Shown: positions 468 to 40,918, numbered from the stretch's first letter. The stretch is DNA of 64,000 nucleotides from Thermoplasmatota archaeon (GCA_049602735.1 JBMYRW010000003.1:11457-75456), one strand, 5' to 3'. The notes: a model not told the origin generated them from the sequence alone. A program made the numbers and translations.

Positions 468-1232
468 ATGGGTGCTGCCGCCAAAGCGGACAAGAAGCGC
501 TTGGTCGAACTGGAGAAGGAGCTCCGCGACGCCCACGCCCAGGACGTCAAGGCGTACGAAGCCGCGCGCGCCGCCGGGACGACTGCCGAGGCACCAAGCC
601 CGTTGAACCTGGAGTTCCGGATCTTCATGATGCGCCGGCTGTTCAGTGGCGCCCGCTCCATGCGCCGCACCCGCTTCTTCGCCCGCACCGGCGGCTGGGT
701 CCTCCTGGTCCTCTGGAGCCTCATGGGCCTCGTCGGCCTGGCGGCCATCGCGTTCGGCGTCTACGAGACCCTGCGCAACGACGGGCTTCCCACAGCGGAC
801 GGTCTTATCGCGACCGGCGCCGGCGGCGTCGACCTGCTCGCCCTGGCGTTCTTCAAGCCCACCGAGAGCATCAAGCGCCTCCTGGCGGACATGGTGCAAC
901 TGGAGATGGCGGTCAACGGCTTCCAGACCCGCGTCTCCCTTGAGCTGCTCGCCTTCAAGCGCGCCGACGCCGCGACGGTCCTGGCGGCGTCCCAGAACAT
1001 CGGCAAGATCAGCCAAGAGCACCTGAAGGCGATCGAGACGTACTACCAGAACGCCGATACCAGCCGCGGCGGACGTCGGGTCGCAGCCCGGGCCACCCAG
1101 GAGATCGGCGCCGTCAAGGACACGGTGGACGGCCTCACCGGCCAACTGAGCGGTGTGACCGGCAAGGTGGATGCCCTGCAGGCGAACCTGGCCGCCCGGC
1201 TCGACGAGGTCTCCAAGCGGCTGCCCCTGTAG
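468..1232 (+). CDS. Hypothetical membrane protein with C-terminal coiled coil
   Basis: ATG 468 with TTTGAA about 28 nt upstream; two hydrophobic segments; heptad-like C-terminus; host-like codon use. Confidence 0.65.
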   Translation: MGAAAKADKKRLVELEKELRDAHAQDVKAYEAARAAGTTAEAPSPLNLEFRIFMMRRLFSGARSMRRTRFFARTGGWVLLVLWSLMGLVGLAAIAFGVYETLRNDGLPTADGLIATGAGGVDLLALAFFKPTESIKRLLADMVQLEMAVNGFQTRVSLELLAFKRADAATVLAASQNIGKISQEHLKAIETYYQNADTSRGGRRVAARATQEIGAVKDTVDGLTGQLSGVTGKVDALQANLAARLDEVSKRLPL

Positions 1233-1276
1233 GCCGACGCCGCAACCCTTTCACGTCGGCCCCAGTGGGACGCCCC

Positions 1277-2314
1277 GTGGAACTGTACGGCTACGAACTG
1301 CCCTTCGAGGAGCTGCTGCCCCGCATCAAGGAGGCGCACCCGGACCTGGAATCGGTCGGCCTCCAGTTCCCGGACGGCATGCGGGACCACGCCACCGAGA
1401 TCGCCGCCATCGTGGAGGCGGAACTCGGCGCCGTCCCGATCGTCAGCGCCGACCCCTGTTACGGCGCCTGCGACCTCTGCGACGACGAGATGGCCAAGCT
1501 TGGTGTCACGGTGCTCATCCACTTCGGCCACAGCGCCATGCCCAGCGTCCCCACGCAGCACGGCGTGCAGGTCTACTTCGTCCCCGCCCATTCCAGCCAC
1601 GACATCACCGAGGTCGTGGAACGCGCCTGCCGCGAACACCTCCCGGAGGGCACCACCAAGCTGGGGCTCTGCACGACGGCCCAGCACGCCCACAAACTCG
1701 AGGAAGCGGCGGAACTGGTGCGCGGTTTCGGCCTGGAGCCCGTGATCCGCAGCGGCGACGCCCGCACGGCCCTGCCCGGCCAGCTGCTGGGCTGCAACGT
1801 CATGGCGGCCACCGCGGCCATGGACGCCGATGCCTTCCTGTTCGTGGGCAGCGGCGATTTCCATCCCCTCGCCCTCGCCCTGGAGACGCAGAAGCCGATC
1901 ATCGCCGCCGACCCGTACCACGGCATCGTCGCCAACCTGGAGACGGCCAAGCACCGCATCCTGAAGCAACGCTACGCCGCCATCGGCCAGGCGAAGGAGG
2001 CCCAGACGTTCGGCATCGTCGTCTCCACAAAGGGGGGCCAGATGCGTTTCCAGCTCGCCCAGAAGATGCTGCAGAAGCTGCGCGCCCACGGCAAGGAGGG
2101 GACGATCATCCAGAACAAGCAGATCAGCCCCGGCGACCTGCTCTACTTCCGCCACCTGGACGCTTTCGTCGGCGTCGCCTGCCCCCGCGTCCCGATCGAT
2201 GACCAGGGCCGCTACGACAAGCCGTTCCTGACGCCCCAGGAACTCGACATCGTCCTCGGCGTCAAGAAGGCGGACCTGTACGTGTTCGACACGTACACGG
2301 CGCACAGTCGGTAG
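1277..2314 (+). CDS. dph2: Diphthamide biosynthesis enzyme Dph2
   Basis: LQFPDG, DPCYGACD, HFGHS, LLGCN and VACPR (three Fe-S Cys); GTG start at 1277 or 1265. Confidence 0.95.
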   Translation: MELYGYELPFEELLPRIKEAHPDLESVGLQFPDGMRDHATEIAAIVEAELGAVPIVSADPCYGACDLCDDEMAKLGVTVLIHFGHSAMPSVPTQHGVQVYFVPAHSSHDITEVVERACREHLPEGTTKLGLCTTAQHAHKLEEAAELVRGFGLEPVIRSGDARTALPGQLLGCNVMAATAAMDADAFLFVGSGDFHPLALALETQKPIIAADPYHGIVANLETAKHRILKQRYAAIGQAKEAQTFGIVVSTKGGQMRFQLAQKMLQKLRAHGKEGTIIQNKQISPGDLLYFRHLDAFVGVACPRVPIDDQGRYDKPFLTPQELDIVLGVKKADLYVFDTYTAHSR

Positions 2315-2331
2315 CGGCGACGGCGATCCGA

Positions 2332-2643
2332 TCAGGTTCCTTTGACCTGATAGGGGGGCGATGTCTGGACGTTCATGAATCCACCCGGCTCGCCACCTCG
2401 TTCTTTGTTCAACTCCTGCAAGGCAAACGACTCAGGGCACGAGATGCGTACCTGTCCCGTCGTCGGTAGATGTTCCATGAGCGAGGGGGCCGCTTCTTCC
2501 ACTTGGGATTCAAGGACAGCAACCTGATTCGGCTGATGTCCTTCTTTGATGAAAGCCAGGCAGATCTCGTCGTGTGCGGGGGTCGTGCATCCAGGCAGGC
2601 ATCCGCCAAGGATCAGTACGATCCCGAACACAGCCGATTTCAT
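2332..2643 (-). CDS. Hypothetical small lipoprotein, lower GC than flanks
   Basis: MKSAVFGIVLILGGCLPGC lipobox-like N-terminus; many A/T-ending codons. Confidence 0.5.
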   Translation of the reverse strand: MKSAVFGIVLILGGCLPGCTTPAHDEICLAFIKEGHQPNQVAVLESQVEEAAPSLMEHLPTTGQVRISCPESFALQELNKERGGEPGGFMNVQTSPPYQVKGT

Positions 2644-2936
2644 GGGCCAACCAGGCTTGCGGTCCACTATCATCCTGCCGGCGGCCCGACCTGATCGACG
2701 GCGCCATCAAGCCGCTGCGGCCGGTTCGTCCCACAAGACCACGCCACTGGAGGAGTGGCGCCTGCGACGGCGGTGCCGGCGGCGGCGCTGCTCGTCGTTC
2801 CATTCCCGTGCTTCATCGCTCAGGTCATGCATCCAGCCCCTAGAGTCACGCCCGGGCACGTCAAGCCGTCCCCTATTGATGCTAGGTTCACCATGGTGGC
2901 TGCCAAGTTTCAAAGGCATCCGACCGATGCCCCGGC

Positions 2937-5147
2937 ATGGCTCCCCGAAACGCCACCCTCCCGTTGACGGCGCTCCTGCTCTTGGTCCCCTTGACCGGCG
3001 TGACCGTCACGGGGGCCGACGCGCCCTTCCCGTCGGGAGCCATCGACCTGGACGTGGATGCGGACCGCGATGGCCTCATCCACCCGGATCGAGATGAGAC
3101 CGGCGAGGCATCAGCCTCCGTAGCTGCGGGGGCGCTCTACCAAGTGAACCTCGACGATGACGACGCGGACGGCCTGCCTGATGGCCTGCTCCTGGCAGAG
3201 GACGGCACGCCCGCCGCCCTCGACGGTCGGGTCAACGGGGAAAGGGACCTGGCTGACCTGGCCCCCGTCCATTTGCGAGCATCGGCCGCGGATCTGCTGG
3301 CCCTCCGCCTCTCGGCCGAACTGGACGACCTGCGCGCCGTGCAGCTCTTCGCCTGGCCTGAAGCCGGCACGCCCGCTGCGTGGGGTGGCCCCCAGGAGAC
3401 ACGGACCACCCTCGACATCCTGCCACTCCTTCAAGAGGGGCGCCTTGAACTGGGCCTGGAAGGGCTGTTCTTCGCCTGGGACCAGCCGGGCGCCCACGGG
3501 CTCTTCCCGGACGGCTTTGATGGCGTGGTGCGCTTCACGGCGACGGCCCTCCATGCCGACGGGGCGGTCTCGACGGACACGGTCGCCCTGCGCGTGGCGC
3601 CACTCCTGGTAACACCGGCCACCCAGGAGGCGAAGGTGGTCTTCGAACGTCGTGGCCTGCTCTTGGGCACGGACGCATTGACCGACGGCAACGATTGGGT
3701 CCGCGACCATGCCACGTTCGGATCCACCGGCGCTCCCGGCCTGGACCCCATGGACGTGGTGCTGCGCCTGCCGTATGCCCGCCCAGAGCTGCCACAGTGG
3801 CCGACCGACCTCCTTGGCCCAGACGTGGGGTGGTACCTCTTGGCGGACGAGCTGGGTGGCGCCGGCGGCGACCACGGCGGCAACCTGCTGGCGCTCCCGC
3901 CCACCGACGGGGCGCCGCTCGGACGCATCCTGGTCGGCTCCACCATGAGCGACGCCCTGTACGGCTTCTTCGTCGACCAGGGGGCACAGGCGCCCTTCCC
4001 GAAGGAGACGGTCGACACCTCCTGGCTCGCCGTAGGCCACTTGGACGAACGGGTCAACGTGCTCCCCGACCCCGACGCACCCGACGGCTGGCGGCTCGTG
4101 GTCGCCCGCCCAGCAACCGCAGCGGAACTGGAGGTCCAGACCGACGCCGCCACGGAGACGGCGCCCTTCCTCGAGTCGATCGTCCGACCGTTCCTGGAGG
4201 GTACGCTGCCCGTCGGGGACGATTGCGTCCGCTACGAGGTGCAGCGCCGGGCTGCTCCGCCGAACCCCTCACCACCGACCCATGACGATGCCGGCGATGG
4301 CGGCCCGGATGCCTGCGGCGCACGCGCGTCCGGCGTCCGCTGGATGACCCCCCTGGAAGAGGTCCCTGGCCGCTGGGCCATGGACGTAGGCCATCGAGCC
4401 GGCATCGAAGGGCGGCTGTTGGATGCTGATGCCGCAAGCCTGGGCACCCGCCTCTTCGATGGCAAGCGCCTGATGGTGGACGGCCGCGAAGGCCGCTTCC
4501 TCGTGGAGACAGAAGGAAGGGCGGACGTCGGCGCTCGGGAAGGACGGGCAAGCGACGGCGCCCGCTTCGATCACCGCTTTGCTGTCGGCGGCCGTGCCAC
4601 CGACACAGAGGACCCTGCGTTCCTCGGTTCCAGCCGGTTCGGCGTCCGCGCTTTGGACAACCACGTCTCCTGCGACCTCGCGGAGGCCCAAGGCCGCCGT
4701 GCCATACCTTGCCAGCGGGCCACGCCCGGCATCGCGACGCCGGCCCTGGATGACCTGCGCCGCTCGGTGGGTCAACGTGCCGCCGGGCTCCTGTACGACC
4801 TGGGCCTCGGCGGCGGCGACGTCACGACGGCGCAGTACGCCGGTGGGCCCCTCGATGGACTGGCGGAGCGCCTCGGAGCGCTCACTGGCGCAGACGTGGT
4901 GGAGGTACCGGTCCATTGGGAGGAGTCTCCTCGCGGCGCGGTGGCCGCCTTGCCGTCGGCGGTCAACTTCGTCCACGTCGACGGCGTCACGCATGTGCCG
5001 ACCCTCGAAGCGGGCAGCGCCCTGGACGACGAGGCCCGCGGAGCATTCGGCGAGACCGTCCGTTTCGTGCCCAATGACCGGCTCCACGCTGCCGGCGGCG
5101 AACTCCACTGCGCCACCAATGTGTGGCGTATCGGCTTGGCTAGCTGA
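2937..5147 (+). CDS. Secreted protein-arginine deiminase (PAD) family protein
   Basis: Signal peptide; PAD motifs DWVRD, GGNL...PP, GRILVGS, DTSWLAVGHLDE, GGELHCATN. Confidence 0.85.
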   Translation: MAPRNATLPLTALLLLVPLTGVTVTGADAPFPSGAIDLDVDADRDGLIHPDRDETGEASASVAAGALYQVNLDDDDADGLPDGLLLAEDGTPAALDGRVNGERDLADLAPVHLRASAADLLALRLSAELDDLRAVQLFAWPEAGTPAAWGGPQETRTTLDILPLLQEGRLELGLEGLFFAWDQPGAHGLFPDGFDGVVRFTATALHADGAVSTDTVALRVAPLLVTPATQEAKVVFERRGLLLGTDALTDGNDWVRDHATFGSTGAPGLDPMDVVLRLPYARPELPQWPTDLLGPDVGWYLLADELGGAGGDHGGNLLALPPTDGAPLGRILVGSTMSDALYGFFVDQGAQAPFPKETVDTSWLAVGHLDERVNVLPDPDAPDGWRLVVARPATAAELEVQTDAATETAPFLESIVRPFLEGTLPVGDDCVRYEVQRRAAPPNPSPPTHDDAGDGGPDACGARASGVRWMTPLEEVPGRWAMDVGHRAGIEGRLLDADAASLGTRLFDGKRLMVDGREGRFLVETEGRADVGAREGRASDGARFDHRFAVGGRATDTEDPAFLGSSRFGVRALDNHVSCDLAEAQGRRAIPCQRATPGIATPALDDLRRSVGQRAAGLLYDLGLGGGDVTTAQYAGGPLDGLAERLGALTGADVVEVPVHWEESPRGAVAALPSAVNFVHVDGVTHVPTLEAGSALDDEARGAFGETVRFVPNDRLHAAGGELHCATNVWRIGLAS

Positions 5148-24783: not shown

Positions 24784-24892
24784 GTAGCATCCCCCTACGA
24801 CGAAGGCACGTTGCCCGAGTCCTTGACGGTGCGTTGGGAAGTTCCCCGACCATCGACCCTTGTTTATCTACCACCGCGTTGAATCGACATCC

Positions 24893-26920
24893 ATGAGCCC
24901 ACAAACGGTGCCCATGTTCGTGACGGTCGTGCTCGTCCTGGGTGCGATCGTCGCCCTGCCTGATCCGGTGGCCGCACAGGACGACAGCGCCCTCAAGGGT
25001 CGCGTCTGCGCCAACGATTCTTTCGAAGCGTACGAAGACCAGCCCGACGCGGCCGGCGACGACCCCGACATGATGATGCCTGCCTACGGCCGGTGCTACG
25101 GCAACGGCCTGCCGGGTGCCTCCATCGAACTGGTGCCCATGACGGCCCTTGGCGACCTGGAACCCCAGCGCCATGAGGCCACCAGCAACGACCGTGGTGA
25201 CTACGTCATCGACGGCCTGGCCGACGGCGACTACACGTTCACCGTCAGCCGCGCCGGCTTCGAGGACGCCACGGGCGAACTGAGCGTCGAAGGCAACGAC
25301 GAGCGGTCGTTCAGCCTGTTCGGCGAGGCGATCACGGTCGCCGGTAGCGTCCTGGGCCCTGCGGGCGGCGGCATCGCCGACGCCGAGATCCAGTTCTGGG
25401 GTCACGAACACGCTTCGGCCAGCACGGACGATGCCGGTCGCTTCGCGGCCAGCCTCACGGCCGGTTGGTACTCCATCGAGACCCGTGCGCCCGGCTTCTA
25501 CCAGCACCACGACTACCTGCTCCTGGACGGCCAGGAAGGCCTCGAGATCGACCTGGAGCGCCTGCCGCCCCAGACGGCCACGGTCTCCGGCCGCGTGCTC
25601 GACCAGGACGGCTCCCCCGTGGAGGACGCCCGCGTCATCGTCAACCAGTGGCAGCACTGCTGCTACCATTACGCCTACGCCGAGGACGAGGATGCCCCTG
25701 AGCCCGCCGGCGCCAGCGGTGGCAGCCGCGGAGGCGACATGGCCACGGACGCCATGATCGCCCCCTACCCCGGCGGCGGCCAGAACTGGACGTTCACGGA
25801 CGCCAACGGCCGCTACACCATCAACGTCTACGAAGGCTGGGTGGACCTCCGCGTCGAGAAGGAGGGCTACCTGGGCCAGAACACCGGCCTGGAGGCCCGC
25901 GACGGCGGCAGCCACACCCAGGACCTGGAGGCCGAGAAGCTCCCTGAGAAGACCGCACGCATCACGGGCCGCATCGTCGACCAGGACGGCGACCCCGTCC
26001 CCTTCGTCAGCCTCTCCATCGAGAGCCCCAAGTGGGGCATCCATGAGTGCAGCAACGACTGGGAAGGCTGCCGCATCGACATCGGCCGCGACGGCCGCTT
26101 CGATGTCTCCGTCACCCCTGGTTACAGCATCCTGCGCGTCTACCATGAACACTGGCGCACCTGCACAGAGACCCAGCACAGCGGCGGCGGCTTCACCCGC
26201 GACTGCGGCCCCGAGTACTACTCCTGGGTCCTGTCCACGGACCTGGCCGCCGACGGCACCACGCCCCTCGTGATCGAGCTGCGCGAACGCCCCGGCCCGG
26301 ACGCGGTCGTCAGCGGCTACGTCGTCGACGCCGAGACCAACCAGGCGCTCGCCGGTGTCCAGGTCAGCTTCAGCAACCAGGACGGCCGCGGCTACGGCTG
26401 GGCCACCACCGACGAGGACGGCAGCTACCGCCTCCGCATGCACAGCGGCTTCCACAGCGTCAGCGTGTGGGCGGACGGTTACTTCCACTACGAAGGCCAG
26501 CTCGACATCGCCGCGGACCGCGAGACCTCCTTCGACATCCTGATGCACGAAGGCGAGCCCCGCTACGGTGGCTGCTGCTATGGCTACGGCTACGACGACC
26601 ATGAGGTCGCCTACGCCAGTGGCGAAGCGGCCATGGACGGCGGCGCGGACAGCGACGACATGGCCGGCGGCAACACCGGCGGCGCCAGCGCCCCCACCCT
26701 CGCCGGCGGCGACAGCGCCGATGCAGCTCGCGAAGGTGGCTCCGATGCGGCCTTCGAGGACCTGGGCGGTGGCCTGGGCCCCTACGACCCGGCCCGCCGC
26801 ACCGGTGCCAACGGTGGCACGAGCTCCATCGACGACGGCGAAGACAGCCCCGGCCTCGGCCTGGTGGTCCTGCTCGCCGGCCTGGGTGCCGCTGCGGTGG
26901 CCCTGCGCCGCCGCAGTTGA
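24893..26920 (+). CDS. Surface protein with repeated carboxypeptidase-regulatory-like beta-sandwich domains and an archaeosortase-type C-terminal signal
   Basis: Signal peptide; repeated (V/I)xGxVxD...TD.xG.Y units; tail GEDSPGLGLVVLLAGLGAAAVALRRRS. Confidence 0.85.
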   Translation: MSPQTVPMFVTVVLVLGAIVALPDPVAAQDDSALKGRVCANDSFEAYEDQPDAAGDDPDMMMPAYGRCYGNGLPGASIELVPMTALGDLEPQRHEATSNDRGDYVIDGLADGDYTFTVSRAGFEDATGELSVEGNDERSFSLFGEAITVAGSVLGPAGGGIADAEIQFWGHEHASASTDDAGRFAASLTAGWYSIETRAPGFYQHHDYLLLDGQEGLEIDLERLPPQTATVSGRVLDQDGSPVEDARVIVNQWQHCCYHYAYAEDEDAPEPAGASGGSRGGDMATDAMIAPYPGGGQNWTFTDANGRYTINVYEGWVDLRVEKEGYLGQNTGLEARDGGSHTQDLEAEKLPEKTARITGRIVDQDGDPVPFVSLSIESPKWGIHECSNDWEGCRIDIGRDGRFDVSVTPGYSILRVYHEHWRTCTETQHSGGGFTRDCGPEYYSWVLSTDLAADGTTPLVIELRERPGPDAVVSGYVVDAETNQALAGVQVSFSNQDGRGYGWATTDEDGSYRLRMHSGFHSVSVWADGYFHYEGQLDIAADRETSFDILMHEGEPRYGGCCYGYGYDDHEVAYASGEAAMDGGADSDDMAGGNTGGASAPTLAGGDSADAAREGGSDAAFEDLGGGLGPYDPARRTGANGGTSSIDDGEDSPGLGLVVLLAGLGAAAVALRRRS

Positions 26921-27824: not shown

Positions 27825-28745
27825 GTGAGCGACCCGGTCCTCGTCCACATCGGCTACCACAAGACGGCGACCAAGTGGTTCCAGGAACGGCTGTTCCCTC
27901 ACCACCCGGACCTGGTGCCGCTGCACCGGGACGTCATCGCCAAGGCGCTCGTCTGGCCCCATCCCCTCCATTTCGACCCCGTTGCCGCCCGCGCGGAGCT
28001 GCTGCCGCACCTGGAGGCGGCGTGGCAAGAAGGCAAGGTCCCGGTGCTGTCCGCCGAGCGGCTCTCAGGCAACCCCACGTCAGGGGGTTTCGACGCCAAG
28101 GAGATCGCCGAACGCATCGCGGCCACGCTGCCCGAGGCGCGCGTATGGATGCAGATCCGGGAGCAACGGGCCGCCGTGGCCAGCTACTACAAGCAGTACG
28201 TCCAGGAAGGCGGCACGGCGCGCATCGGGCGCTTCCTAGCCGGGGACGGCGTCCTCAAGCGCCAACCCGTCTTCCGTCTGGAGCATTGGGACTACGGGCC
28301 GCTGGTCGCCCAGTACCGCGACCTGGTGGGCGATGACCGGCTCCTGGTGACCCTGTACGAGGCGTTCCGGGACGACGCCGACGCCGTGGTGGGGAAGGTC
28401 TGCGCCCATGCCGGCGTCGCCGTACCCGGCAGTCTACCCGACCCCGGCCGGCGCCGCAACGTCAGTTACAGCGACCTCTCCATCCGCATCATTCGGGCCA
28501 CCAACGGCCTGTACGCCCACCCGTACGTGGACCATCGGCCGTTGCTGCGACTGCCCGGCCGACGTGTGCCGCGGGTGCTGCTCAAGGGCCTGGACCGGGT
28601 GTGGGGCCGGCGCGCAGGAGGCAAAGCGATCCAGAACGCGATCACCGCTGCGGTCGCCGAGCATTACGTCGCGGGCAACCAACGGCTGGCCGGCCTCTTG
28701 GGCGTCGATCTTGCGGAGCGTGGCTACGCGGTCTCGTCGGATTGA
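27825..28745 (+). CDS. Sulfotransferase family protein
   Basis: HIGYHKTATKWFQ PAPS-binding loop; LSAERLSG; IREQ...SYYKQY. Confidence 0.8.
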   Translation: MSDPVLVHIGYHKTATKWFQERLFPHHPDLVPLHRDVIAKALVWPHPLHFDPVAARAELLPHLEAAWQEGKVPVLSAERLSGNPTSGGFDAKEIAERIAATLPEARVWMQIREQRAAVASYYKQYVQEGGTARIGRFLAGDGVLKRQPVFRLEHWDYGPLVAQYRDLVGDDRLLVTLYEAFRDDADAVVGKVCAHAGVAVPGSLPDPGRRRNVSYSDLSIRIIRATNGLYAHPYVDHRPLLRLPGRRVPRVLLKGLDRVWGRRAGGKAIQNAITAAVAEHYVAGNQRLAGLLGVDLAERGYAVSSD

Positions 28746-29263
28746 GGCTCCTCGGACGCCTCCATCCCGTCGCCGTACGCGACCGTCACATCGATGTCCC
28801 CAGCAGCCTGCACGACGGCGGCCCCGTTCGCGCTGGCGAACATGGTGACGGTCCACGTGCCGGGCTTGGGATCGGTGACCTCGAGGCTGAGCGCCTCGGT
28901 GCCCTCGACGGCCGCGATGAAGTCGTCGTTGTGGAAGAACACGAGGGCCAATTCACAGGCCGGGCCAGACATGCAGGACCAGTCGGACGTCGCGCTGATC
29001 GACGTGGCGTTGTCGCCGATCTTCACCTGGCCACCAAAGGGGCCTTCCGTGACGTACGGGGGGTACGCGTAGAAGAAGGGGCCCGCGACGGCGACGGTCA
29101 TGGACCACGGGAACGTCTCGTTGAGAGGGCCGACCATGGACTGGCCGGTCGCCTCGCCGATCGGCTGGTCCCCAGCATCATCGGTGGGAGCATCTTCGGA
29201 GATGCAGCCTGCCAAGGCGGCGGTGAGCAAGGTGAGCGTCAAGAAGGTGCGGGGTGCAACCAT
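28724..29263 (-). CDS. Hypothetical lipoprotein (paralog A)
   Basis: Lipobox LAGC; NATSISATSDWSCMSGPACELALVFFHN shared with the neighbouring gene. Confidence 0.75.
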   Translation of the reverse strand: MVAPRTFLTLTLLTAALAGCISEDAPTDDAGDQPIGEATGQSMVGPLNETFPWSMTVAVAGPFFYAYPPYVTEGPFGGQVKIGDNATSISATSDWSCMSGPACELALVFFHNDDFIAAVEGTEALSLEVTDPKPGTWTVTMFASANGAAVVQAAGDIDVTVAYGDGMEASEEPQSDETA

Positions 29264-29340
29264 GGAGCGCCATGTACCCGCCCGCATCAAAGCGGTTTCT
29301 GGTCCTGACGGCGAAACCGATGGCATTCTCGACAGGTCGG

Positions 29341-29841
29341 TCACGTCTCGGTCGTGCCGTAATCGACCTGGACGGTCATCTCGCCGGTCGCCATGACGAC
29401 CGCCGAACCGTTCATGCTGGGGAACATGGAGACCCTCCAACCACCGGCCGCCGGTGCGTCCAGTTCGATGCGCGCCTCGGCCGCGGCCTCGTGGATGCTG
29501 ACCACGTCGCCGTTGTGGAACAGCACCAAGGCCAGCTCACACACGGGGCTGCTCAGGCATGACCAGTCGGCCGTGGCAATGAGGCTCGTGGCGTTGGCCT
29601 TCACGCTGAAGGTCTCGGTGGAGACGTCCGTGCCGGCGGTGGGGTGCACGGCGACGGCGGGGGTGCCGACGCCGACGTCCAGGTTGAAGGGGAACGTGCC
29701 GTTGAACGGCCCCGGGGCCTCCATGGGGGCCACGGGCTCCCTGAACATCGGCTCATCGTCGGTCGTCGGCTCATCGTCGAGACAGCCCCCTAGGAGTGCC
29801 ATGAGGGCGCCGGCAAGGAGGACAGACACGGGGATCCGCAT
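29341..29841 (-). CDS. Hypothetical lipoprotein (paralog B)
   Basis: Lipobox LGGC; NATSLIATADWSCLSSPVCELALVLFHN. Confidence 0.75.
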   Translation of the reverse strand: MRIPVSVLLAGALMALLGGCLDDEPTTDDEPMFREPVAPMEAPGPFNGTFPFNLDVGVGTPAVAVHPTAGTDVSTETFSVKANATSLIATADWSCLSSPVCELALVLFHNGDVVSIHEAAAEARIELDAPAAGGWRVSMFPSMNGSAVVMATGEMTVQVDYGTTET

Positions 29842-29984
29842 GCTGTGTCCAGCAGCGGTGCCGTCATCTGGTTTCTGGTCAGGACGTCCAGGGATGCGCG
29901 CACCGCGTCTGTGCCGCCACCCCCCCAACGGTTGGACATCTCCCGCAACCGAAGCTTCATGTCCGTTCCCGGTGACCGGGGAGC

Positions 29985-31277
29985 GTGAGCGGTCCCGCTG
30001 ACGTGCCCAGCGATCCACCAGGCGCCCCGCCGGCCGATGCCTCCACCGGGGGCAAGAAGGGGAAGCGGCAGCGAAGGCCCCGGCCGCACCCGTACGCCAA
30101 GGAGGCGAGCCCGGAGGCGGAGCTGGAGATGGATGCCAAGCGCGTCACCGTCTTCTGGATCGGCCTGGCAACGCTCCTGCTCGCCGGCGGCCTCCTGCTC
30201 GCCCGGCGGCTCAGCCCCTACGTCACCGACGGCGAACCCCTGGCGACGTGGGAGCAATGGACCAACGTGCCACTCTTTGTCGGCCTGGCGCTGCTCGGCT
30301 TCGGCTTCATCCGCGAGACCTGGAGCAAACGGCTCACCATGGCCGGCTGGGTGCTCTTCGCCTTCTACTGGGCCCTCGTCGCGCAGGACCTGCTCATCAA
30401 GGAAGGGCAGGATTACGTCAACTTCATCTTCGCGTTGGTCGGCGTCTATTTCTTCGTCTACCTCGCCTACCATCAGTGGCTGAACCTGGTTCGCGGTGTA
30501 CGCAATGACGCCGTCCATTTCCTCAATGTCACGGCGTTCGTGGCCGCTGGCAGCTACTTCCTCATCGCCAAGGTGACCGTGTTCCGCGTCTGGCTCATCA
30601 AGCTCGTGGGCGGCCACACCAAGTGGGGCCTCGACCTGTTCGGGCAGGGCGACAAGCAGGGGCTGCAGTTCGTCATCGACGAAGTGGACACCCGCGGCCC
30701 TGTGACGTTCTTCTATCCCGACCGGTACTGCAACCCCCACCGCAGCGACCCCGTCGGCACGTACTGCGCCGAGCAGGATACGGGGATCATCAACACCTAC
30801 CCGCCGGAGCCTACCTCCTGGTGGCAGTCGGCGCTGCAATGGGCGCCGGAAGGCGAGAGCCTGATGATCGTCCCCGTCAGCATCATCCTGGCCTGCACGG
30901 CCATCCAGTCGATCATGCTCTTCGTCGGCCTCTTCGCCGGCACCCAAGCGACGTGGCAGAAGAAGCTCAAGTGGAGCCTCATCGTCGGGGTCATCATCTA
31001 CATCCTGAACCTGGTGCGCAACGTCGGCATCATCTGGTTCTACGGCCAGGGCCACGCCAGCTTCTGGGTGATGCACAACGCCATCGGCAAGGGCGGCAGC
31101 CTGCTCGCCATGGTCGGCATCGCCTTCGCCGTGTTCAAACGGTACCCGGAGTTCTTCAAGGCCCTCGTGGGCGTCCTCGACCTGCCAGAACGGGACGGCC
31201 CCATCGAACGGACGCTGCGACTTGGACGCCGAAGGCCGGAGGCCGTGGCTGTCCAAGGCGTGGATGCCGGCCCGTAA
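29985..31277 (+). CDS. artA: Archaeosortase (ArtA-like)
   Basis: Polytopic membrane protein; VSIILACTAIQS (catalytic Cys), LNLVRN (Arg), FWVMHN..GK; GW..F..YW helix. Confidence 0.88.
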   Translation: MSGPADVPSDPPGAPPADASTGGKKGKRQRRPRPHPYAKEASPEAELEMDAKRVTVFWIGLATLLLAGGLLLARRLSPYVTDGEPLATWEQWTNVPLFVGLALLGFGFIRETWSKRLTMAGWVLFAFYWALVAQDLLIKEGQDYVNFIFALVGVYFFVYLAYHQWLNLVRGVRNDAVHFLNVTAFVAAGSYFLIAKVTVFRVWLIKLVGGHTKWGLDLFGQGDKQGLQFVIDEVDTRGPVTFFYPDRYCNPHRSDPVGTYCAEQDTGIINTYPPEPTSWWQSALQWAPEGESLMIVPVSIILACTAIQSIMLFVGLFAGTQATWQKKLKWSLIVGVIIYILNLVRNVGIIWFYGQGHASFWVMHNAIGKGGSLLAMVGIAFAVFKRYPEFFKALVGVLDLPERDGPIERTLRLGRRRPEAVAVQGVDAGP

Positions 31278-31364
31278 GGGGCGGCGGACCAAACTGGGAC
31301 GAAGGCGGCCTGACGATGGCGAACCGCCCGGCGGGGCGCCGCCGGTATGGGCTTAATGCGTCGT

Positions 31365-32258
31365 TCAGTCTGAACTGGGGTGGTCGACTGCCCTGGCTTC
31401 GAGCCGGAAGAGTTCGCTCACCAGAACCAGCTCCGTAACATGACTTCGTGTTGGACCGTCGTCATGTTCGGGTTCGCGATGGTTTCGTGGATTGCGGTAG
31501 GCCCCAAACGCTCCGGTGAACAAGTTCGCCCGCCCTTCGCGCTCGCCGTTGTCAATGCCCGACCATTGTAGCGGAGGATTCTTCCCGAGAAACGCGTTGC
31601 TACAGAGGGCCCTACCTTGGCCTTCTAGCCCTGTGCGCTCTCGAATCGTATGCTCGAGCCTGCGAAAAGCCTTCATCAGGGCCGCATCAGGGTCGTTCCA
31701 GAATTCACGGGCGATGTCATGCAATCGAGGGTCTAGCAAAGCATAGGGCATCGCCAACGGAGCATACAACCAAAGACGGCCTGTATCGCGCAAGTCCCAA
31801 TGTTTGTCAAAAACATAGTCCGACCAAGGTCGGACCCACCCGGCAGAACCGAGCAAACGCTCCAGCTCAGACTCCAACAGCCTACACTGATTGATTTTTT
31901 TCATCAGCGCTGCCGAAATTTCAACTTCATCGATATCGCACCCATAGGCATCAAAGACTAGGAGTGCCTTCGAAAAGCCTCGTGATCCTTCCCCCGCGTA
32001 GTTTGAACCAAATCCAGATTTTACAGCAACATAACGATATCCTTCCATCTCCACGAGGAACCCGTTGTCGGCTGGCGTGCCCGGCACTGTTAGAATTATC
32101 ACGCGCTTAATTTTAGGTTGAAACATTAGCAGCGCATAGATTGCCTTCAAGCACGGTGCTGTAACTCCAGCAACTCCTATGTACTCAATCGCCGCAGGCT
32201 CCGATGCCTCGCCATCCACGTCAACCAACCGAGCTAGTGTCATTGGAAACCGTTCCAC
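31365..32258 (-). CDS. TIGR02391-family protein, low-GC insert
   Basis: AFRRLE..IR.RTGL...G..L...AF and GEREGRANLFTGAFGAYRNPRNH; markedly AT-richer than flanks; start GTG 32258 or ATG 32243. Confidence 0.8.
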   Translation of the reverse strand: MERFPMTLARLVDVDGEASEPAAIEYIGVAGVTAPCLKAIYALLMFQPKIKRVIILTVPGTPADNGFLVEMEGYRYVAVKSGFGSNYAGEGSRGFSKALLVFDAYGCDIDEVEISAALMKKINQCRLLESELERLLGSAGWVRPWSDYVFDKHWDLRDTGRLWLYAPLAMPYALLDPRLHDIAREFWNDPDAALMKAFRRLEHTIRERTGLEGQGRALCSNAFLGKNPPLQWSGIDNGEREGRANLFTGAFGAYRNPRNHREPEHDDGPTRSHVTELVLVSELFRLEARAVDHPSSD

Positions 32259-32356
32259 ATATGCTTAGTTTGACTATAAGAAAGAGCCAGGGCGCCTCTC
32301 TCGGACGCGCGAATCCCCAGCGCTCCCTTCAAGACGGGGGTCTCCGTCGGCCGCCT

Positions 32357-32995
32357 GTGCTACGCATCGCCCACGGCGGCGCCAACTGGATCGTCATCCC
32401 CATCAGCCTCGCCCTCCTCATGGTCGGCCTGGCGGGCCCGCTCGGCATGCCGTGGCTGGTGCCTCTCTCCGGCGTGCCGTTCTTCTTCACCCTGTTCTTC
32501 CTCTACTTCTTCCGCGACCCGGAACGCCCGGCCCACCCCGAAGGGCTCGCCTGCCCCGCCGACGGCAAAGTGGTCCGCGTCGATGAAGTGGACGACCCGG
32601 ACGTGGGCCGCGCCCAGCGCCTCTCCATCTTCATGCGCCCCAGCGACGTCCACGTCAACCGGTTCCCCCTGGACGGTGACGTGCGGCGCGTGACCCACCA
32701 CGCCGGTAAACACGTCCCGGCGTTCAACAAGGACAGCCACCGCAACGAACGCGTCGAGACCCTCCTAGCGACCGAGCTCGGGGAGGTGAAGGTGATCCAG
32801 ATCGCCGGCGCCGTCGCCCGCCGTATTGTCCCCTACGCGCAACCCGGCGACCACGTGGCCCGTGGCGAGAAGCTGGGACTCATCCGACTCGGCAGCCGCT
32901 GCGACCTTCTGATCCCGGTGGGGAAGGTGGCCTGGACCGTCGAGGTGGGGCAGCGCGTGTTCGCCAACCGGACCAAGGTGGCCGAGACGACATGA
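32357..32995 (+). CDS. psd: Phosphatidylserine/archaetidylserine decarboxylase proenzyme
   Basis: FFRDPER, PADGKV, IFM...DVHVNR.P, NER, QIAG, LGS self-cleavage motif. Confidence 0.93.
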   Translation: MLRIAHGGANWIVIPISLALLMVGLAGPLGMPWLVPLSGVPFFFTLFFLYFFRDPERPAHPEGLACPADGKVVRVDEVDDPDVGRAQRLSIFMRPSDVHVNRFPLDGDVRRVTHHAGKHVPAFNKDSHRNERVETLLATELGEVKVIQIAGAVARRIVPYAQPGDHVARGEKLGLIRLGSRCDLLIPVGKVAWTVEVGQRVFANRTKVAETT

Positions 32996-33771
32996 AGCCG
33001 CGGCAGGTGGTCCGGGCGGCGCTGCGCGACGAATGGGACGGCCTGGACCGCATCACGCGTGACATCCGCCCCGCCGACGTGGCCACCATGGCCAACGCGC
33101 TCCTCGGCCTCGTCGCTATCGTGCTCGCCACCCGCGGCCACCCGGAAGCCGCGGCGCACCTGGTCCTCGCCGGCATCATCCTGGACGGTGTCGACGGCGC
33201 CATCGCCCGCATGGGTGGCGGTGGCGGTCCCTTGGGGGGCTTCCTCGACTCCATCGCCGATATGGTCACCTTTGCCGTCGCCCCCGCCGTCCTCCTGACG
33301 ACGCTCGACGTCCCCCTCTCCTGGAGCCTCAGCGCGGGCGCCTTCTTCCTCGTCTGCGTCGCCCTGCGCCTCGCGCGCTTCGAGGCGCTGCGTGAGAAGG
33401 CGCCGCAACGCTACTTCAGCGGCATGAGCAGCCCCGGCGGCGCCCTCGTCGTCGTCAGCGCCACCCTATGGCAGCCGGCCATGGTCGCCTCGGTGCCGGT
33501 CTGGCTCCCGCTAGCGGCGGCCATCGCCATGGGGCCACTCCTGGTGAGCCGCATCCGTTACCCGAAGCTCCGCGGCGCCCTCGGGGCCGCTGCCGTCCTG
33601 ATGATCCTGGCGACGCTGGCTACTTGGCAGGCGGCGCCCCAGCATCACGGGACCGCGTTGTCCCTGATGCTGGCCTTCATGTTGGTGTACCTGGTGGCCG
33701 GGCCGTTCTACGTGCTGCAACGTGTGGGCCCCACGCCGGACCCCCGCGCCGCCGCGCCCGAAGACGCCTGA
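32992..33771 (+). CDS. pssA: CDP-alcohol phosphatidyltransferase (archaetidylserine synthase PssA)
   Basis: DGVDGAIAR...G.FLDSIADMVTFAVAP, LRLARF, YFSG; ATGA overlap with psd. Confidence 0.88.
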   Translation: MKPRQVVRAALRDEWDGLDRITRDIRPADVATMANALLGLVAIVLATRGHPEAAAHLVLAGIILDGVDGAIARMGGGGGPLGGFLDSIADMVTFAVAPAVLLTTLDVPLSWSLSAGAFFLVCVALRLARFEALREKAPQRYFSGMSSPGGALVVVSATLWQPAMVASVPVWLPLAAAIAMGPLLVSRIRYPKLRGALGAAAVLMILATLATWQAAPQHHGTALSLMLAFMLVYLVAGPFYVLQRVGPTPDPRAAAPEDA

Positions 33772-33777
33772 GGAACC

Positions 33778-35253
33778 ATGGCCCAACGACGCAAGAAGCG
33801 CACCAGCATCCGTACCGCCGCCGGCACCGCCCAGGAACGCTACCTGGAGCGCCAACGGGCCCTGGCCGCCGATCCCACGCGCGTCTACCCCCAGCTCACC
33901 CCCGGCGCCGACGTCCCCGCCTCCCTGGCGAAGCTCCGCACCCGCCTGGAGCGGCTGGCGGCCAAGGGCAAGCTGGGCTTCATGGACCGCAAGGACCGTG
34001 GCGTGGCCGGCGCCGTCGCCGCTGCCCTTCCGCTGGCCGAGATGGACGCCGCGCCGCGCCTGCTCGACGGCAAGGTGGCCGGCCAACGACGATTCTACCT
34101 ACAACGAGGACACGTGGAGCGGGCGTGCAGCCTCGGCGTGCAGAACCACGACGACCCACGCGCCCTCCTGTTGGCGTACGGCTCGATGGCCAAGGACGAC
34201 GGCCTCCACTTCTTCGCCGCCGACCAGCTCTGGTGCAGCGGCGCCACGCCGGACCCGCCTGACCAATGGTACGCCAAGCTCGCCAAACGGGGCGACCTCA
34301 CACTCCAACAGGAAGAAAACGGGCGATGGGGTTGCGGCCACACGGACCGCGACCGCGTCCTGCTCACCTTCCGGGGCGGCCCCGGCCTCGCCGTGTGCGG
34401 CGCCTGTGGCAAACGCGCCGGCCACATGCACAAACTCGTCGCCCAGCACTACGCGGGGCCCCGTCGGCGCCAACCGGTCCGCCTGGCGATCCTCCGTGCG
34501 GACGGCGAGAGCCTGGAGCTCGACGACAAGGACGCCGCCGCCTACCGGGCCGGCGTCGATACGGAGCAGAACGCCATCTCGAAGGTGATCGCCGCCTGGC
34601 GTAAGGAGGCCCGCGACGCCTCCGATGGCCCACGGTTCGTCCTCGGCGACCAGGACCACGGCAGCGATCAAGCCGAGTTCCTCGACGCGCTGGCCCCGGA
34701 ACCCTGGGAGCGCACCGCCCTCGCCGCTATGACGAAGGACGGCTTCGTGCGCCGCGCCACGACGGTCGCCGAAGTGCTGGCCACCCTGAAGGACGACCTG
34801 TCCACGGGGGTCGCCGCCCTCCTACCCGGGGACGACCGTTTCCTGGCCGAACACGCCGGCGCCACGCCACGTGACCTGCTCCGGCTCGCCCACGAAGAGG
34901 CCCAGCACCGAGAAGCGGTCGCCAAGTTGCCCACCCCCCAAGGCATCGGAACCGCAGGACGCTGGGTCGACGAACTCGCCCGCGACGCGTGCGGACGACC
35001 CGCCGCCGAAGCGCTGCAACAACTACGCCGTACCCATGTCGACCCAGCTCTGCGCGGTCACCAGGCCGCGTTCCTGGCCGCCATGGGTGCCGACCTCGCA
35101 GGACAGGCTGACCTCACGGAAGGCGAACGGGAGGCTGGACGGGCCCGCAAGGAGCTGGCCGCTGCCGTGCTGGCCGCCGAAGGGAAAGCGTACGTCGCCG
35201 CCCTCGACCGCTACCTGCAGGAAAGCGGCAGCGGCGAACGGGCCACGAGCTGA
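33778..35253 (+). CDS. Hypothetical protein with Cys/His motifs
   Basis: 491-aa ORF with host codon usage, 6 nt after pssA; WGCGH and VCGACG motifs. Confidence 0.75.
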   Translation: MAQRRKKRTSIRTAAGTAQERYLERQRALAADPTRVYPQLTPGADVPASLAKLRTRLERLAAKGKLGFMDRKDRGVAGAVAAALPLAEMDAAPRLLDGKVAGQRRFYLQRGHVERACSLGVQNHDDPRALLLAYGSMAKDDGLHFFAADQLWCSGATPDPPDQWYAKLAKRGDLTLQQEENGRWGCGHTDRDRVLLTFRGGPGLAVCGACGKRAGHMHKLVAQHYAGPRRRQPVRLAILRADGESLELDDKDAAAYRAGVDTEQNAISKVIAAWRKEARDASDGPRFVLGDQDHGSDQAEFLDALAPEPWERTALAAMTKDGFVRRATTVAEVLATLKDDLSTGVAALLPGDDRFLAEHAGATPRDLLRLAHEEAQHREAVAKLPTPQGIGTAGRWVDELARDACGRPAAEALQQLRRTHVDPALRGHQAAFLAAMGADLAGQADLTEGEREAGRARKELAAAVLAAEGKAYVAALDRYLQESGSGERATS

Positions 35254-37998: not shown

Positions 37999-39441
37999 CT
38001 AATCGCGGCGCCGGGCCACGAGGGCCGCGACACCGAGGAGGCCGACGAGCACCAGCGCGCCGGGTCCAGGCGAGTCTTCGCCTTCGCCGCCGCTGTCGGT
38101 ACCCGCGTTGCCGCCGCCACCGCCGCCGGTGCCGGCGCCACTGGCGCTGCCACCGCCCGTACCGGGCAGGACGGTCACGGTGAGCGTCTGGCCCAGCGTC
38201 TTGGGCACACCACCGGCCGTGTACTCCAGCGTGGCGTTCACCTGGTAGCTACCAGGAGGGGTGCCTGCCGGGGGCGTCACGACGAACTCTTGGTCACGGC
38301 TGTCACCGGAGGGCACCGGCACGTGGGCAGGCTGCCAGACCAGGTCCCAGCCCTCAGGGGCCTCACCGGTGGTGAAGGGGTGGCCTTCGGAGCCGCCACT
38401 GTTCTGGATGGTGAACTGGAAGACGGCCGACTGGGTCGCCGTGGTCTCCACTTCGACGGCGTTGGCCGCCCAGGTCAGGATCGGGATCTCGGCCGTGATG
38501 GCGCCACCGGTGACGGCGCTGCCGATGTGGATGTCCTTGGTGGCCAGGTTGCCGGCGGCGTCCTTGGCCTCGACGCGCAGAACGTCCGCCGCGTTGAGTT
38601 CGCGGACGGTCCAGCGGTAGGCTTCACCCAGGGTGACGCACTGGTGGGCGGGGGAGGGCAGGGTGCATTCGGGCACGAGGATCGTGGAGAGCCCATGGGG
38701 GCCGTAGCCGGGCACGTAGTCGTTGTCCCAGAGGCGGCCTTCCCACTGCTCGAGTTGGTCGGTGATGTCCTCGCCGTTGAGGGTCACCTTGAGCTCGGAG
38801 AGGGGCTCGGCGAACTCGATGCTGAGGCCGCTCTGGCCGTCGGGCAGCTGGCCGTCGCCGGGCAGCACGATGGGCCACGGCATGGTGGCATCGTTGTTCT
38901 TGTGCTGCTCCGCGTCGTCGGGGCAGCGTTCCACCGGAGCACCCGCGTCGCAGTTGCTCACGATCGCCTTGGCCCAGAAGCGCGCCAGCTCGTTGTTGCT
39001 GGCGTCGTAGGCGTGCACGGCGGCCGTGTACTGGCCATCCGGCACGAGGGGCGTCTGCAGGTTGATGAAGAAGCCGTCGTCGGGGTTGGTGTCGGCACGG
39101 TAGTTGATGACCTGTTGGCCCGTGAACCACGCGGCGCTGGGCAGGTCACAGACGCTGTCGGGGAAGTCTGTCACGTGGGCCCCGAAACTGAATCCGAACG
39201 CCGCGATCTGGTCGGCGCTGGCGCCGATCGCCTGGAACTGCACGAACAGGCTGCCGCTGGCGCGGATGAAGCCGTCGCTGCCGGGAGCGATGTCCGGGTT
39301 GAGCAGGACCAAGGTCAGGTCGCCGCAGCACCCGATGTTAGGATTGTCACAGATGTTGTTGCTGCTCACTTGGGCCGACGTGGGGGCCGACCAGACGAGC
39401 ACCATCGCGGTCGCCAGTAGAATGGAAGTCAGGACGCGCAT
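37999..39441 (-). CDS. Secreted Cys-containing protein with an NPCBM-associated/NEW3-like domain and a C-terminal sorting signal (paralog 1)
   Basis: Signal peptide; PEGW...VTPP...PGSY motif; tail GEDSPGPGALVLVGLLGVAALVARRRD. Confidence 0.8.
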   Translation of the reverse strand: MRVLTSILLATAMVLVWSAPTSAQVSSNNICDNPNIGCCGDLTLVLLNPDIAPGSDGFIRASGSLFVQFQAIGASADQIAAFGFSFGAHVTDFPDSVCDLPSAAWFTGQQVINYRADTNPDDGFFINLQTPLVPDGQYTAAVHAYDASNNELARFWAKAIVSNCDAGAPVERCPDDAEQHKNNDATMPWPIVLPGDGQLPDGQSGLSIEFAEPLSELKVTLNGEDITDQLEQWEGRLWDNDYVPGYGPHGLSTILVPECTLPSPAHQCVTLGEAYRWTVRELNAADVLRVEAKDAAGNLATKDIHIGSAVTGGAITAEIPILTWAANAVEVETTATQSAVFQFTIQNSGGSEGHPFTTGEAPEGWDLVWQPAHVPVPSGDSRDQEFVVTPPAGTPPGSYQVNATLEYTAGGVPKTLGQTLTVTVLPGTGGGSASGAGTGGGGGGNAGTDSGGEGEDSPGPGALVLVGLLGVAALVARRRD

Positions 39442-39517
39442 GTTACCACCGTTGCTCGACCTGGGCTCCTTCAAAAAAGGATTGTTGTTAGAGAGGCGGG
39501 GTGAACAGCGCCCGCGG

Positions 39518-40918
39518 CTACGTGGGGCGCCGCCGGGCCAAAGCGACTGTGAGAGCCACAAGCACCAACGCGAGGCCGGGAAGCGGGGAGTCTTCGCCTT
39601 CGCCGTCGTCCCCGGCCGTGGGGGCGGCTTCGGCGCCGTCGCCACCGGGGGCGGGCGGGACGACCAGGACGTTGAGGGCGCTCTCGACGCTCTTCTCCAG
39701 GCTGCCCTGTTGGTAGTCGATGATGGCGCGCACAGGGTAGCGATCAGGCGCCGTGTCGGCGGGGATCGTGACGTGCAGGGCCTGTTCGCTGCTGCCGCCG
39801 GCGGGGACGGGGCGGTGGCCGGGGACCCATTCATAGGACCAGCCTTCGGGGACCTCCGCCGAGGCGAAGGGGTGGCCTTCGCCGCCGCCCGTGTTCTGAA
39901 GGAGTGCTTCGAGCACCGCCGTGCCGCCTGGGGGCCCTTCGACGGTGGATTCGTCGAAGGTCATCTGGAGGATCGGGAGGCCGTCGGAGATCGTGCCGCC
40001 CGCCACGCTGGAGCCGATGTGGATCTCCTTGCGTGCCACGTTGCCGTTCTCGTCGGTGGCGATGACCCTGATGACGTCGCTGTCGACCACGTCGCGGCCG
40101 GTCCATTGATAGGCAGGCCCGACGAGGGGGCCACACTGGTGCGCCGGCTCCGGCAGGGTGCAGGGGGTCAGGATCTGGTAGAAATGGCCGCCGGGGCCAC
40201 CCGTGGGCGCGTTGTCCTGGTCCCACATGGGGCGGTCGGCCCACTCGGAGAGTTCGCCCGTGACGTCCTCACCGTTGAGCTCCACCGTCAGGTTGGAGAG
40301 GCGCTCGTTGAACTCGAAGGCGAACCCGGGTACAGGGCGGTCGGCGCCGTCGCCTGGCAGCAGGATCGGCCAGGGCATGGTGACGTCTCGTTCCTGGGCC
40401 GCGGGATCGTCAGGGCAGCCCAGTTCCGGGGGGTTGCCGCAGTTGTCGAGGCGTACGAGCCCCCAGAAGCGGGCGATCTCCTGGCCGGAGGCGTCGTAGC
40501 CGTGCACAGCGACGCCGAGGTCGGTCTGCGGACTGGTCTGGCCGTTGCTGTTGATGGCGATGAAGAAGCCGTCGCTGGCCACGGGGTCGTAGGCGTACCC
40601 CTCCAGGTAGAGGCCAGTGAGCCAGCCCGCAGGGGGCAAGGCACAGACCTCTTCGCCGGTGGGGATGTCGAAGCCGAAACTGAGGCCGAACGCCTCGATC
40701 TCCGAGGCCCGTTCGCCGATCACCTGGAACTGCACCAGGAGGCGGCCACTCACATGGAAGAGACCGTTGGCATCAGGGGTGATGTCGGGGTTGCGGATGA
40801 AGAGCTCAAGCCCTTCGCCGCAGGATTGGAGTTGCCCGGCCGCCGGCGCGGGCAGCAGCGCCAGGCTCGTCATCGCCGCCAGGAGGACCACCACGGCACG
40901 CTGTCCCATCACACCCAT
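39518..40918 (-). CDS. Secreted Cys-containing protein with a NEW3-like domain and a C-terminal sorting signal (paralog 2)
   Basis: Collinear with the neighbouring gene (NPDI, VQFQ, DGFFI, TMPWPI.LPGDG); tail GEDSPLPGLALVLVALTVALARRRPT. Confidence 0.8.
   Translation of the reverse strand: MGVMGQRAVVVLLAAMTSLALLPAPAAGQLQSCGEGLELFIRNPDITPDANGLFHVSGRLLVQFQVIGERASEIEAFGLSFGFDIPTGEEVCALPPAGWLTGLYLEGYAYDPVASDGFFIAINSNGQTSPQTDLGVAVHGYDASGQEIARFWGLVRLDNCGNPPELGCPDDPAAQERDVTMPWPILLPGDGADRPVPGFAFEFNERLSNLTVELNGEDVTGELSEWADRPMWDQDNAPTGGPGGHFYQILTPCTLPEPAHQCGPLVGPAYQWTGRDVVDSDVIRVIATDENGNVARKEIHIGSSVAGGTISDGLPILQMTFDESTVEGPPGGTAVLEALLQNTGGGEGHPFASAEVPEGWSYEWVPGHRPVPAGGSSEQALHVTIPADTAPDRYPVRAIIDYQQGSLEKSVESALNVLVVPPAPGGDGAEAAPTAGDDGEGEDSPLPGLALVLVALTVALARRRPT

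Follow-up and report, generated by a model that had tools for sequence, protein, structure and literature searches.

The 64,000-nucleotide stretch JBMYRW010000003.1:11457-75456 (GCA_049602735.1) from a Thermoplasmatota archaeon, called the window throughout, carries the genes artA, psd (pssD) and pssA at positions 29985 to 33771. They were assigned to an archaeosortase A, an archaetidylserine decarboxylase and a CDP-alcohol phosphatidyltransferase. With a probability of roughly three in four, this locus is the Thermoplasmatota version of the ArtA-PssD-PssA module for lipid anchoring of proteins. The assignment is carried by the conserved gene order and by natural ArtA-Psd fusions in relatives. 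Archaeosortase-dependent C-terminal lipid anchoring holds the surface layer in many archaea, and its chemistry is a model from one haloarchaeon. The locus indicates that the three-gene unit is old and widespread in the large phylum Thermoplasmatota, most of which is uncultured. What the window itself adds is mostly confirmation, the system being known and the lineage new.

The concept has been published before, and the window adds one more case to a cluster already described. An association of artA with a neighbouring pssA in Methanosarcina and other methanogens had been pointed out by Haft and co-workers, and in several Methanosarcina species pssD is flanked by artA and pssA (Abdul-Halim et al. 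2020, mBio; PMC7157517). This synteny motivated gene deletions in Haloferax volcanii, where deletion of pssA or pssD blocked ArtA-dependent cleavage and lipidation (PMC7157517). The original prediction for the window had relied on this requirement for PssA and PssD, which is stated in that paper. The three genes are reported to lie apart from one another in H. volcanii and in over 70 further haloarchaea (PMC7157517). No mention of an artA cluster in Thermoplasmatota was found in the literature, although Haft 2012 or Fig. S1 of PMC7157517 may list further lineages, and no literature joining archaeosortase with marine group II was found.

As far as the Methanosarcina cluster is described there, the likeness consists of the three gene families, their order and the functional inference. 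The window differs in its origin from an uncultured Thermoplasmatota, in a foreign gene which splits artA from psd, in an ArtA with a two-Cys loop of about 75 amino acids (aa) and an N-terminal extension, and in predicted sorting tails below the PGF-CTERM cut-off; furthermore, some of its relatives fuse ArtA and Psd. With H. volcanii it shares the ArtA family TIGR04125, the Cys/Arg spacing, the tripartite form of the predicted substrate tails and homologues of PssA and PssD. In contrast, the haloarchaeal models NF038086 and NF038088 missed the window genes, and Phe of the PGF motif occurred in only 6 of 43 tails. Removal of a C-terminal signal and joining of the protein to an ethanolamine-containing lipid is also catalysed by the eukaryotic glycosylphosphatidylinositol (GPI) transamidase. 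The same is described for the rhombosortase/GlyGly-CTERM system of Vibrio cholerae (PMC7157517). Both enzymes are unrelated to ArtA, and the likeness is an analogy only.

Genes of the cluster and conservation of their order

The ORFs (open reading frames) of the original prediction, namely the co-oriented artA, psd and pssA with one low-GC (guanine-cytosine) foreign gene between them, were all found at their positions, the insert lying on the opposite strand (Table 1). The GC content was about 70% in the window and 68.3% in the genome, which was 88.7% complete and contained artA, psd and pssA as single copies. Among the listed sequencing runs the stretch was found in X1 only, which is not on record as RNA. 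In a second assembly of this run, which is probably the source sample and not independent, a single 11-kb contig spanned 30500-33500 without any difference. Thus, the insertion is not an artefact of one assembler.

Comparison of ArtA with the archaeosortase subfamily models, proposed earlier as a check, gave a clear result. TIGR04125 exceeded its cut-off, whereas every other archaeosortase and exosortase model stayed far below (bits/cut-off: ArtH 34/200, ArtE 21/95, pacearchaeosortase 23/80, heimdallarchaeosortase 21.5/130). The match to TIGR04178 reached 62 bits (cut-off 23). C304 (in an ACTAIQS motif), R345, H364 and K369 were invariant across 57 aligned ArtAs. Cys173, Arg214 and Arg253 are reported as the critical residues of H. 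volcanii ArtA (PMC9263693); the C304-R345 distance of 41 equals that of Cys173 and Arg214, compared by spacing and not by alignment. A basic residue (K385/R386) follows 40-41 residues past R345 and is not invariant. The true start of artA is uncertain and lies upstream of the RPHPYA motif (residues 31-36, ~30075-30092), which was conserved within the window's family.

Psd matched PF02666 with 142.2 bits (cut-off 22) and NF003685 with 189.8 bits (cut-off 183). The GTG at 32357 is its likely start, because the alignments of relatives begin at residues 34-58 of the ORF 32204-32995. Among 57 sequences the FFRDPER motif and the Gly-Ser of the expected self-cleavage site (LGSR) were conserved, and the LGSR serine, which we take to be the pyruvoyl precursor, was invariant. 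Two hydrophobic helices were predicted at the N-terminus. The PssA translation contains a DGAIARx8GxxxDxxxD motif. Its top NCBIfam matches were archaetidylserine synthase models, each below the cut-off (NF038087 108/240, TIGR04217 103/200, TIGR00473 102.7/107). Judged from these best matches and the adjacent decarboxylase gene, the product is most likely an archaetidylserine synthase with specificity for serine.

Table 1 Features of the window, numbered from its first nucleotide, and of the ArtA-Psd fusions, numbered within the named loci (bit scores are given with cut-offs)
Feature	Position	Strand	Remarks
artA, archaeosortase A	29985-31277	+	430 aa from first GTG; TIGR04125 120.1 bits (75)
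psd (pssD), archaetidylserine decarboxylase	32357-32995	+	probable GTG start 32357, 212 aa; ORF open from 32204
pssA, CDP-alcohol phosphatidyltransferase	32992-33771	+	259 aa; PF01066 50.3 bits (22); ATG overlaps psd stop by 4 bp
Presumed catalytic Cys304 codon of ArtA	30894-30896	+	ACTAIQS motif; Arg345 41 residues downstream
Long ArtA loop before the catalytic transmembrane helix	30645-30875	+	residues ~221-297; Cys pair C249/C261
ArtA loop motif RYCNPHRSDPVGTYC	30723-30767	+	residues 247-261
Fusion L137 (G048)	987-2243	+	418 aa; ArtA tail straight into Psd FFRDPER, Psd membrane anchor missing; pssA next, 4-bp overlap
Fusion L138 (G063)	2450-3991	-	513 aa; hydrophobic linker; pssA next, overlapping
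Fusion L139 (G057)	1997-3340	-	447 aa; Psd anchor region kept; next gene not pssA
Fusion L140 (G066)	2018-3361	-	447 aa; Psd anchor region kept; next gene not pssA
Predicted ArtA substrate, secreted	24860-26920	+	686 aa; four CarboxypepD_reg domains (PF13620 x4); ends ...GEDSPGLGLVVLLAGLGAAAVALRRRS (end of ORF at 26840-26920)
Second tripartite-tail protein flanking the cluster	37999-39834	-	
Low-GC insert, Hypoth_Ymh / HEPN-type protein	31365-32258	-	297 aa, 894 bp; not part of the anchoring module
Orphan gene	33778-35253	+	491 aa; starts 6 bp after pssA
Weak sulfotransferase-like ORF	27825-28745	+	between TroA and artA
Tandem paralogues	28724-29440 and 29341-30018	-	41% identical; lipobox-like LAGC/LGGC signal ends

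Synteny was counted by hand from the match coordinates of artA, psd and pssA; the related genomes are not independent and the counts are no statistical test. Among 41 genomes, comprising the window's own and 40 relatives, artA>psd>pssA was contiguous on one strand in 28. Five more had artA>psd adjacent with pssA on another contig, which gives artA>psd in 33/41 overall. In three genomes, all of one genus, artA and psd lay 8-18 kb apart, and one had all three genes on separate short contigs. The other four were uninformative: two gave no match to artA, psd or pssA, while the remaining two had a contig ending at artA and no psd match was found.

A second sample consisted of 80 named loci, obtained as matches to the ArtA alignment in species-representative genomes and partly from the same genomes as the first set. 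Their sources were uncultured archaea, nearly all labelled Thermoplasmatota, Thermoplasmata or 'uncultured Thermoplasmatales', with a few under other labels and one Marine Group III genome. By tblastn, psd was directly downstream of artA in 67 loci, 53 of which run on into pssA according to ORF clustering. It was 3.5 kb from artA in one locus, absent from at least 2 kb downstream of artA in six (L069, L072, L073, L077, L126, L127), and another six loci end too early to judge. The artA stop overlaps the psd start in many low-GC lineages. Other neighbours in the 80 loci were lineage-specific only: a THEP1-like nucleoside triphosphatase (27 loci) and a Trm1-like gene (14), both named from sequence and not by family search, and the 491-aa orphan (18).

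In a phylum sample of 121 genomes, each at least 80% complete, artA was matched in 98 and psd in 93. Both genes were found in 89 genomes, artA only in nine, psd only in four and neither in 19; these figures were derived from the tallies and the listed rows, which leave out three genomes without an artA match and eight without a psd match. Of the 89 genomes with both genes, 44 had them adjacent.

The order was kept across relatives of 29% to 72% GC and with ArtA identity down to ~30%; thus, the clustering of artA, psd and pssA is far beyond chance. By sequence comparison, artA-psd-pssA appears to be an ancestral unit of Thermoplasmatota. Adjacency in relatives, on which the original prediction depended, was hence found in all three samples, and relatives without the insert have the artA-psd-pssA order. 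Its claim of genomic-context support for such a system outside the haloarchaea was strengthened by the stop/start overlaps and by single-ORF fusions; such support is not new, the Methanosarcina cluster being already published.

ArtA-Psd fusions, candidate sorting tails and the proposed mechanism

In four genomes of the phylum sample (G048, G063, G057 and G066), artA and psd were found in one open frame (Table 1). All four fusions had an N-terminal TIGR04125 match above the cut-off (108-153 bits) and C-terminal matches to phosphatidylserine decarboxylase. Furthermore, a 447-aa query retrieved 11 clusters (P0041-P0051) from a collection of 5.8 billion proteins. These were 418-552 aa long, contained both Pfam domains at 91-100% query cover and came from several sources, with the name 'archaeosortase A' at NCBI and 'phosphatidylserine decarboxylase' at JGI. 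A twelfth fusion cluster (P0162) came from a representative library. Some of the public clusters probably duplicate the four genomic ORFs. The 418-aa fusion, in which the ArtA tail is joined to the catalytic domain of Psd, agrees with the predicted cytoplasmic position of the ArtA C-terminus.

A quick tree of 67 ArtA domains, with long branches, gave three gains or losses of the fusion, of which the well-supported branches force only one. Given the different junction designs, at least two, several origins are likely, but this is not proven. No literature report of an archaeosortase-phosphatidylserine decarboxylase fusion was found; in the accessible text of PMC7157517, 'fusion' refers to GFP tags and to the HVO_0405 gene fusion. 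Gene fusions are classic evidence for joint action, and they offer a single polypeptide to express, assay and image. Those of ArtA and Psd, which occur in several Thermoplasmatota lineages, add weight to the view that archaeosortase works jointly with the pathway for the lipid head group. A further protein, P0100 (483 aa), carries PF02666 and PF01066 and is an apparent Psd-PssA fusion.

Candidate substrates were searched for among 7062 stop-to-stop ORFs of at least 150 aa with the tail pattern P-[GA]-x, 11-22 hydrophobic residues and a basic tail. Such a tripartite tail ended 43 of the ORFs, compared with a mean of 0.7 (maximum 3) for shuffled and 2 for reversed tails. Ahead of the hydrophobic stretch the consensus was G-E-(D/E)-(S/A/T)-P-G-x, with the signature (E/D)-S-P-G-x; Phe followed PG in the six tails mentioned above. 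One of these proteins, encoded at 24860-26920, showed a weak TIGR04126 match (18.4 bits, cut-off 24.5), and its gene was syntenic with TroA-artA in close relatives. The weakness of TIGR04126 matches holds across the class.

Gene identities, conserved residues, synteny, fusions and candidate tails were observed; the chemistry of the reactions, the preference of PssA for serine and expression of the genes are what we infer here. In the proposed mechanism, PssA would make archaetidylserine from CDP-archaeol and serine, and Psd would convert it to archaetidylethanolamine by decarboxylation at the cytoplasmic membrane face. ArtA, with Cys304 at the outer end of a transmembrane helix, would remove the (E/D)-S-P-G-x / hydrophobic / RRR tail from about 40 secreted proteins. 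The new C-terminus would then be passed by ArtA to the amine of archaetidylethanolamine, as in the published model. According to that model, which its authors call speculative, a thioester at Cys-173 is resolved by the archaetidylethanolamine amine (PMC7157517).

A more tentative proposal, which we rate at somewhat less than even odds, is that ArtA and the archaetidylserine decarboxylase form one physical machine, the acceptor being made on the cytoplasmic side of the complex which performs transpeptidation outside. If so, the natural fusions would be its single-chain versions and could settle the question of lipid versus protein contact. A disulfide-type loop, the RPHPYA motif and the LDLPxRDGPxER tail of ArtA would be further parts in the window's family. 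A complex prediction for ArtA 50-430 with Psd (57-row alignments each) gave a score of 0.00, which is evidence neither way.

Alternative explanations and the interrupted artA/psd junction

Several observations weigh against the assignment of the locus as a lipid-anchoring module. Archaetidylethanolamine as covalent acceptor is a hypothesis even in H. volcanii (PMC7157517). The models for the haloarchaeal protein sorting system were missed by the window proteins, with 93.8/200 for NF038086 (synthase) and 165.2/240 for NF038088 (decarboxylase); the genes therefore lie outside these narrow models, which has no bearing on whether they work alike. The PGF-CTERM model TIGR04126 gave three matches in the genome, at 18.4-19.7 bits under the cut-off of 24.5. 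This curated model misses the tails because Phe is rarely present. Since psd and pssA are the sole copies found, they must also supply any bulk archaetidylserine or archaetidylethanolamine and need not be dedicated to ArtA. Of the 89 phylum genomes with both genes, 45 had artA and psd unlinked, including whole families, e.g. f22 and f30. Family f13 had ArtA in 8/8 genomes and Psd in 2/8; where Psd was not matched, ArtA could rely on a different acceptor, or Psd could have diverged beyond detection. Finally, the artA/psd junction tolerates insertions and 8-18 kb separations in the window's family, and here the insert on the minus strand probably keeps artA from being transcribed together with psd-pssA. 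The f13 genomes with a clear ArtA match and no Psd match were G054, G085, G091, G102, G111 and G116, which are 93-96% complete.

Among the alternatives, a functional module with an indirect link survives best, and we regard it as unlikely. Psd and PssA or their lipids would serve as binding partners, activators or local membrane, and archaetidylethanolamine would not be the covalent acceptor. For H. volcanii, lipid binding and protein-protein contact were left open as alternatives (PMC7157517), and a fusion is evidence of closeness and not of a particular reaction. Archaetidic acid was reported as the lipid set free from the S-layer glycoprotein of H. volcanii, but the alkaline hydrolysis used could have stripped the ethanolamine, and the analogous rhombosortase system involves a glycerophosphoethanolamine moiety (PMC7157517). 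Moreover, the whole two-step ethanolamine head-group pathway is linked to artA, as seen in the 53 of 80 loci which continue into pssA.

It is considerably less probable that the clustering has no mechanistic meaning, with psd-pssA as housekeeping lipid genes which stand beside artA by shared envelope-gene ancestry. The single-copy state of the genes, the lack of linkage between them in roughly half of the sampled phylum genomes and in the more than 70 haloarchaea described (PMC7157517), and the repeatedly broken junction in the window's family would agree with this. However, the artA>psd order is kept over the wide range of GC content and ArtA identity given above, stop and start codons overlap in many lineages, and ArtA-Psd fusions occur with at least two junction designs. 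Psd without an ArtA match was found in only 4 of 93 genomes, which are related and not independent. The deletion results from H. volcanii likewise speak against this explanation (PMC7157517).

In the window, a foreign HEPN-type gene has landed between artA and psd, and all three reading frames are intact. Its product carries a C-terminal Hypoth_Ymh domain (PF09509 53.9 bits, cut-off 25; TIGR02391 39.8 bits, cut-off 39.45) and gave weak PADLOC matches (PD-Lambda-3_B 1.4e-7, Aga_HEPN 2.6e-7). HEPN domains are defined by an Rx4-6H motif, and an Rx4H motif, RNPRNH, was found at residues 255-260. The N-terminal ~170 aa had no domain assignment. The gene lies within a GC trough of 48-56%, compared with 68.3% for the genome, and is one of 29 low-GC islands (<55% GC over 600 bp) there. 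No homologue was detected by tblastn in 100 related loci. Target-site duplications or terminal repeats flanking the insert were not found, the only repeats being of 10 nt within the coding sequence. A bacterial-type promoter/terminator scan of 31100-32500, with archaeal promoters outside its scope, returned nothing usable. An AT-rich stretch occupies 32259-32290.

The artA/psd junction is repeatedly interrupted in the window's family. Inserts in relatives comprised a co-oriented ORF resembling a membrane protein (~1.1 kb, L063), an ORF with a lipobox (~1.2 kb, L067) and oxidoreductase- and acetyltransferase-like ORFs judged by eye (3.5 kb, L061). In the three genomes split by 8-18 kb, the break lies exactly at artA/psd: artA remains with TroA and the predicted-substrate gene, and psd with pssA and the orphan gene. 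In two of the three split regions fetched, 2-oxoacid oxidoreductase genes, named here and not by family search, come next after psd-pssA-orphan. That the insertion uncoupled or silenced the module and left a decaying remnant is hardly credible: artA and psd are indeed parted by an 894-bp gene on the other strand, but the intact frames keep their conserved residues, artA, psd and pssA are the sole genome copies, 43 candidate substrates are maintained, relatives with other unrelated inserts at this junction keep intact genes, and psd, pssA and the next gene are still tightly coupled downstream.

ArtA loop and neighbouring genes

The long two-Cys loop noticed earlier ahead of the catalytic Cys was found as described, with RYCNPHRSDPVGTYC at residues 247-261 and Cys304 downstream. 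Because this stretch of ~75 aa is an insertion relative to the ArtA model, the model match is split in every family member. Among the 18 close ArtAs of the 57-row alignment, 17 had a loop of 75-89 aa with exactly two Cys and one had 65 aa with none. The distant ArtAs mostly (36/39) had 17-33 aa and no Cys; the remaining three had loops of other lengths with two Cys. A single Cys occurred in none of the 57 loops, and this none-or-two pattern would fit a disulfide. Judged by simple counts of hydropathy and charge, the loop would lie outside the cell, with the C-terminal tail of ArtA inside. The two-Cys loop is thus a conserved, probably extracytoplasmic trait of the window's ArtA family. That it may set substrate specificity was part of the original prediction; a link of the loop to the type of sorting signal was not found, and since TIGR04126 is weak throughout the class, with the loop present or absent, no such correlation can be drawn. 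Two-Cys loops of unlike sequence at the same position in distant ArtAs (L110, L112 (54 aa), L083 (32 aa)) suggest repeated origins of Cys-paired loops next to the catalytic helix.

The two-Cys loop, RPHPYA, the LDLPxRDGPxER tail, the divergent sorting signal and the strain-specific HEPN-type insertion are among the lineage-specific traits. The tail motif LDLPxRDGPxER...GRRRP (residues 398-419, ~31176-31241) was recognisable class-wide, e.g. as LRLPKRQGPVE in a low-GC relative, and could not be seen in the fusion proteins of 418 and 447 aa. In P0226 (592 aa), P0297 (604 aa) and P0270 (485 aa) the archaeosortase domain is C-terminal, behind 200-300 residues for which no NCBIfam family was found at an E-value limit of 1e-8.

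The 491-aa orphan gave no match in Pfam, NCBIfam, PADLOC, PHROGs, PDB sequences or Atlas. It had 40 homologues, all unnamed or 'hypothetical', the named ones from Thermoplasmatota. In close relatives it comes after pssA, and it remains with psd-pssA where artA is separated. It may be an accessory gene specific to the lineage, or may just happen to lie there. On the other side of the cluster, the window has three extra genes between TroA and artA (27825-30018), which most relatives do not have. Homologues of the tandem paralogues among them were found upstream of artA in L074, L075 and L104.

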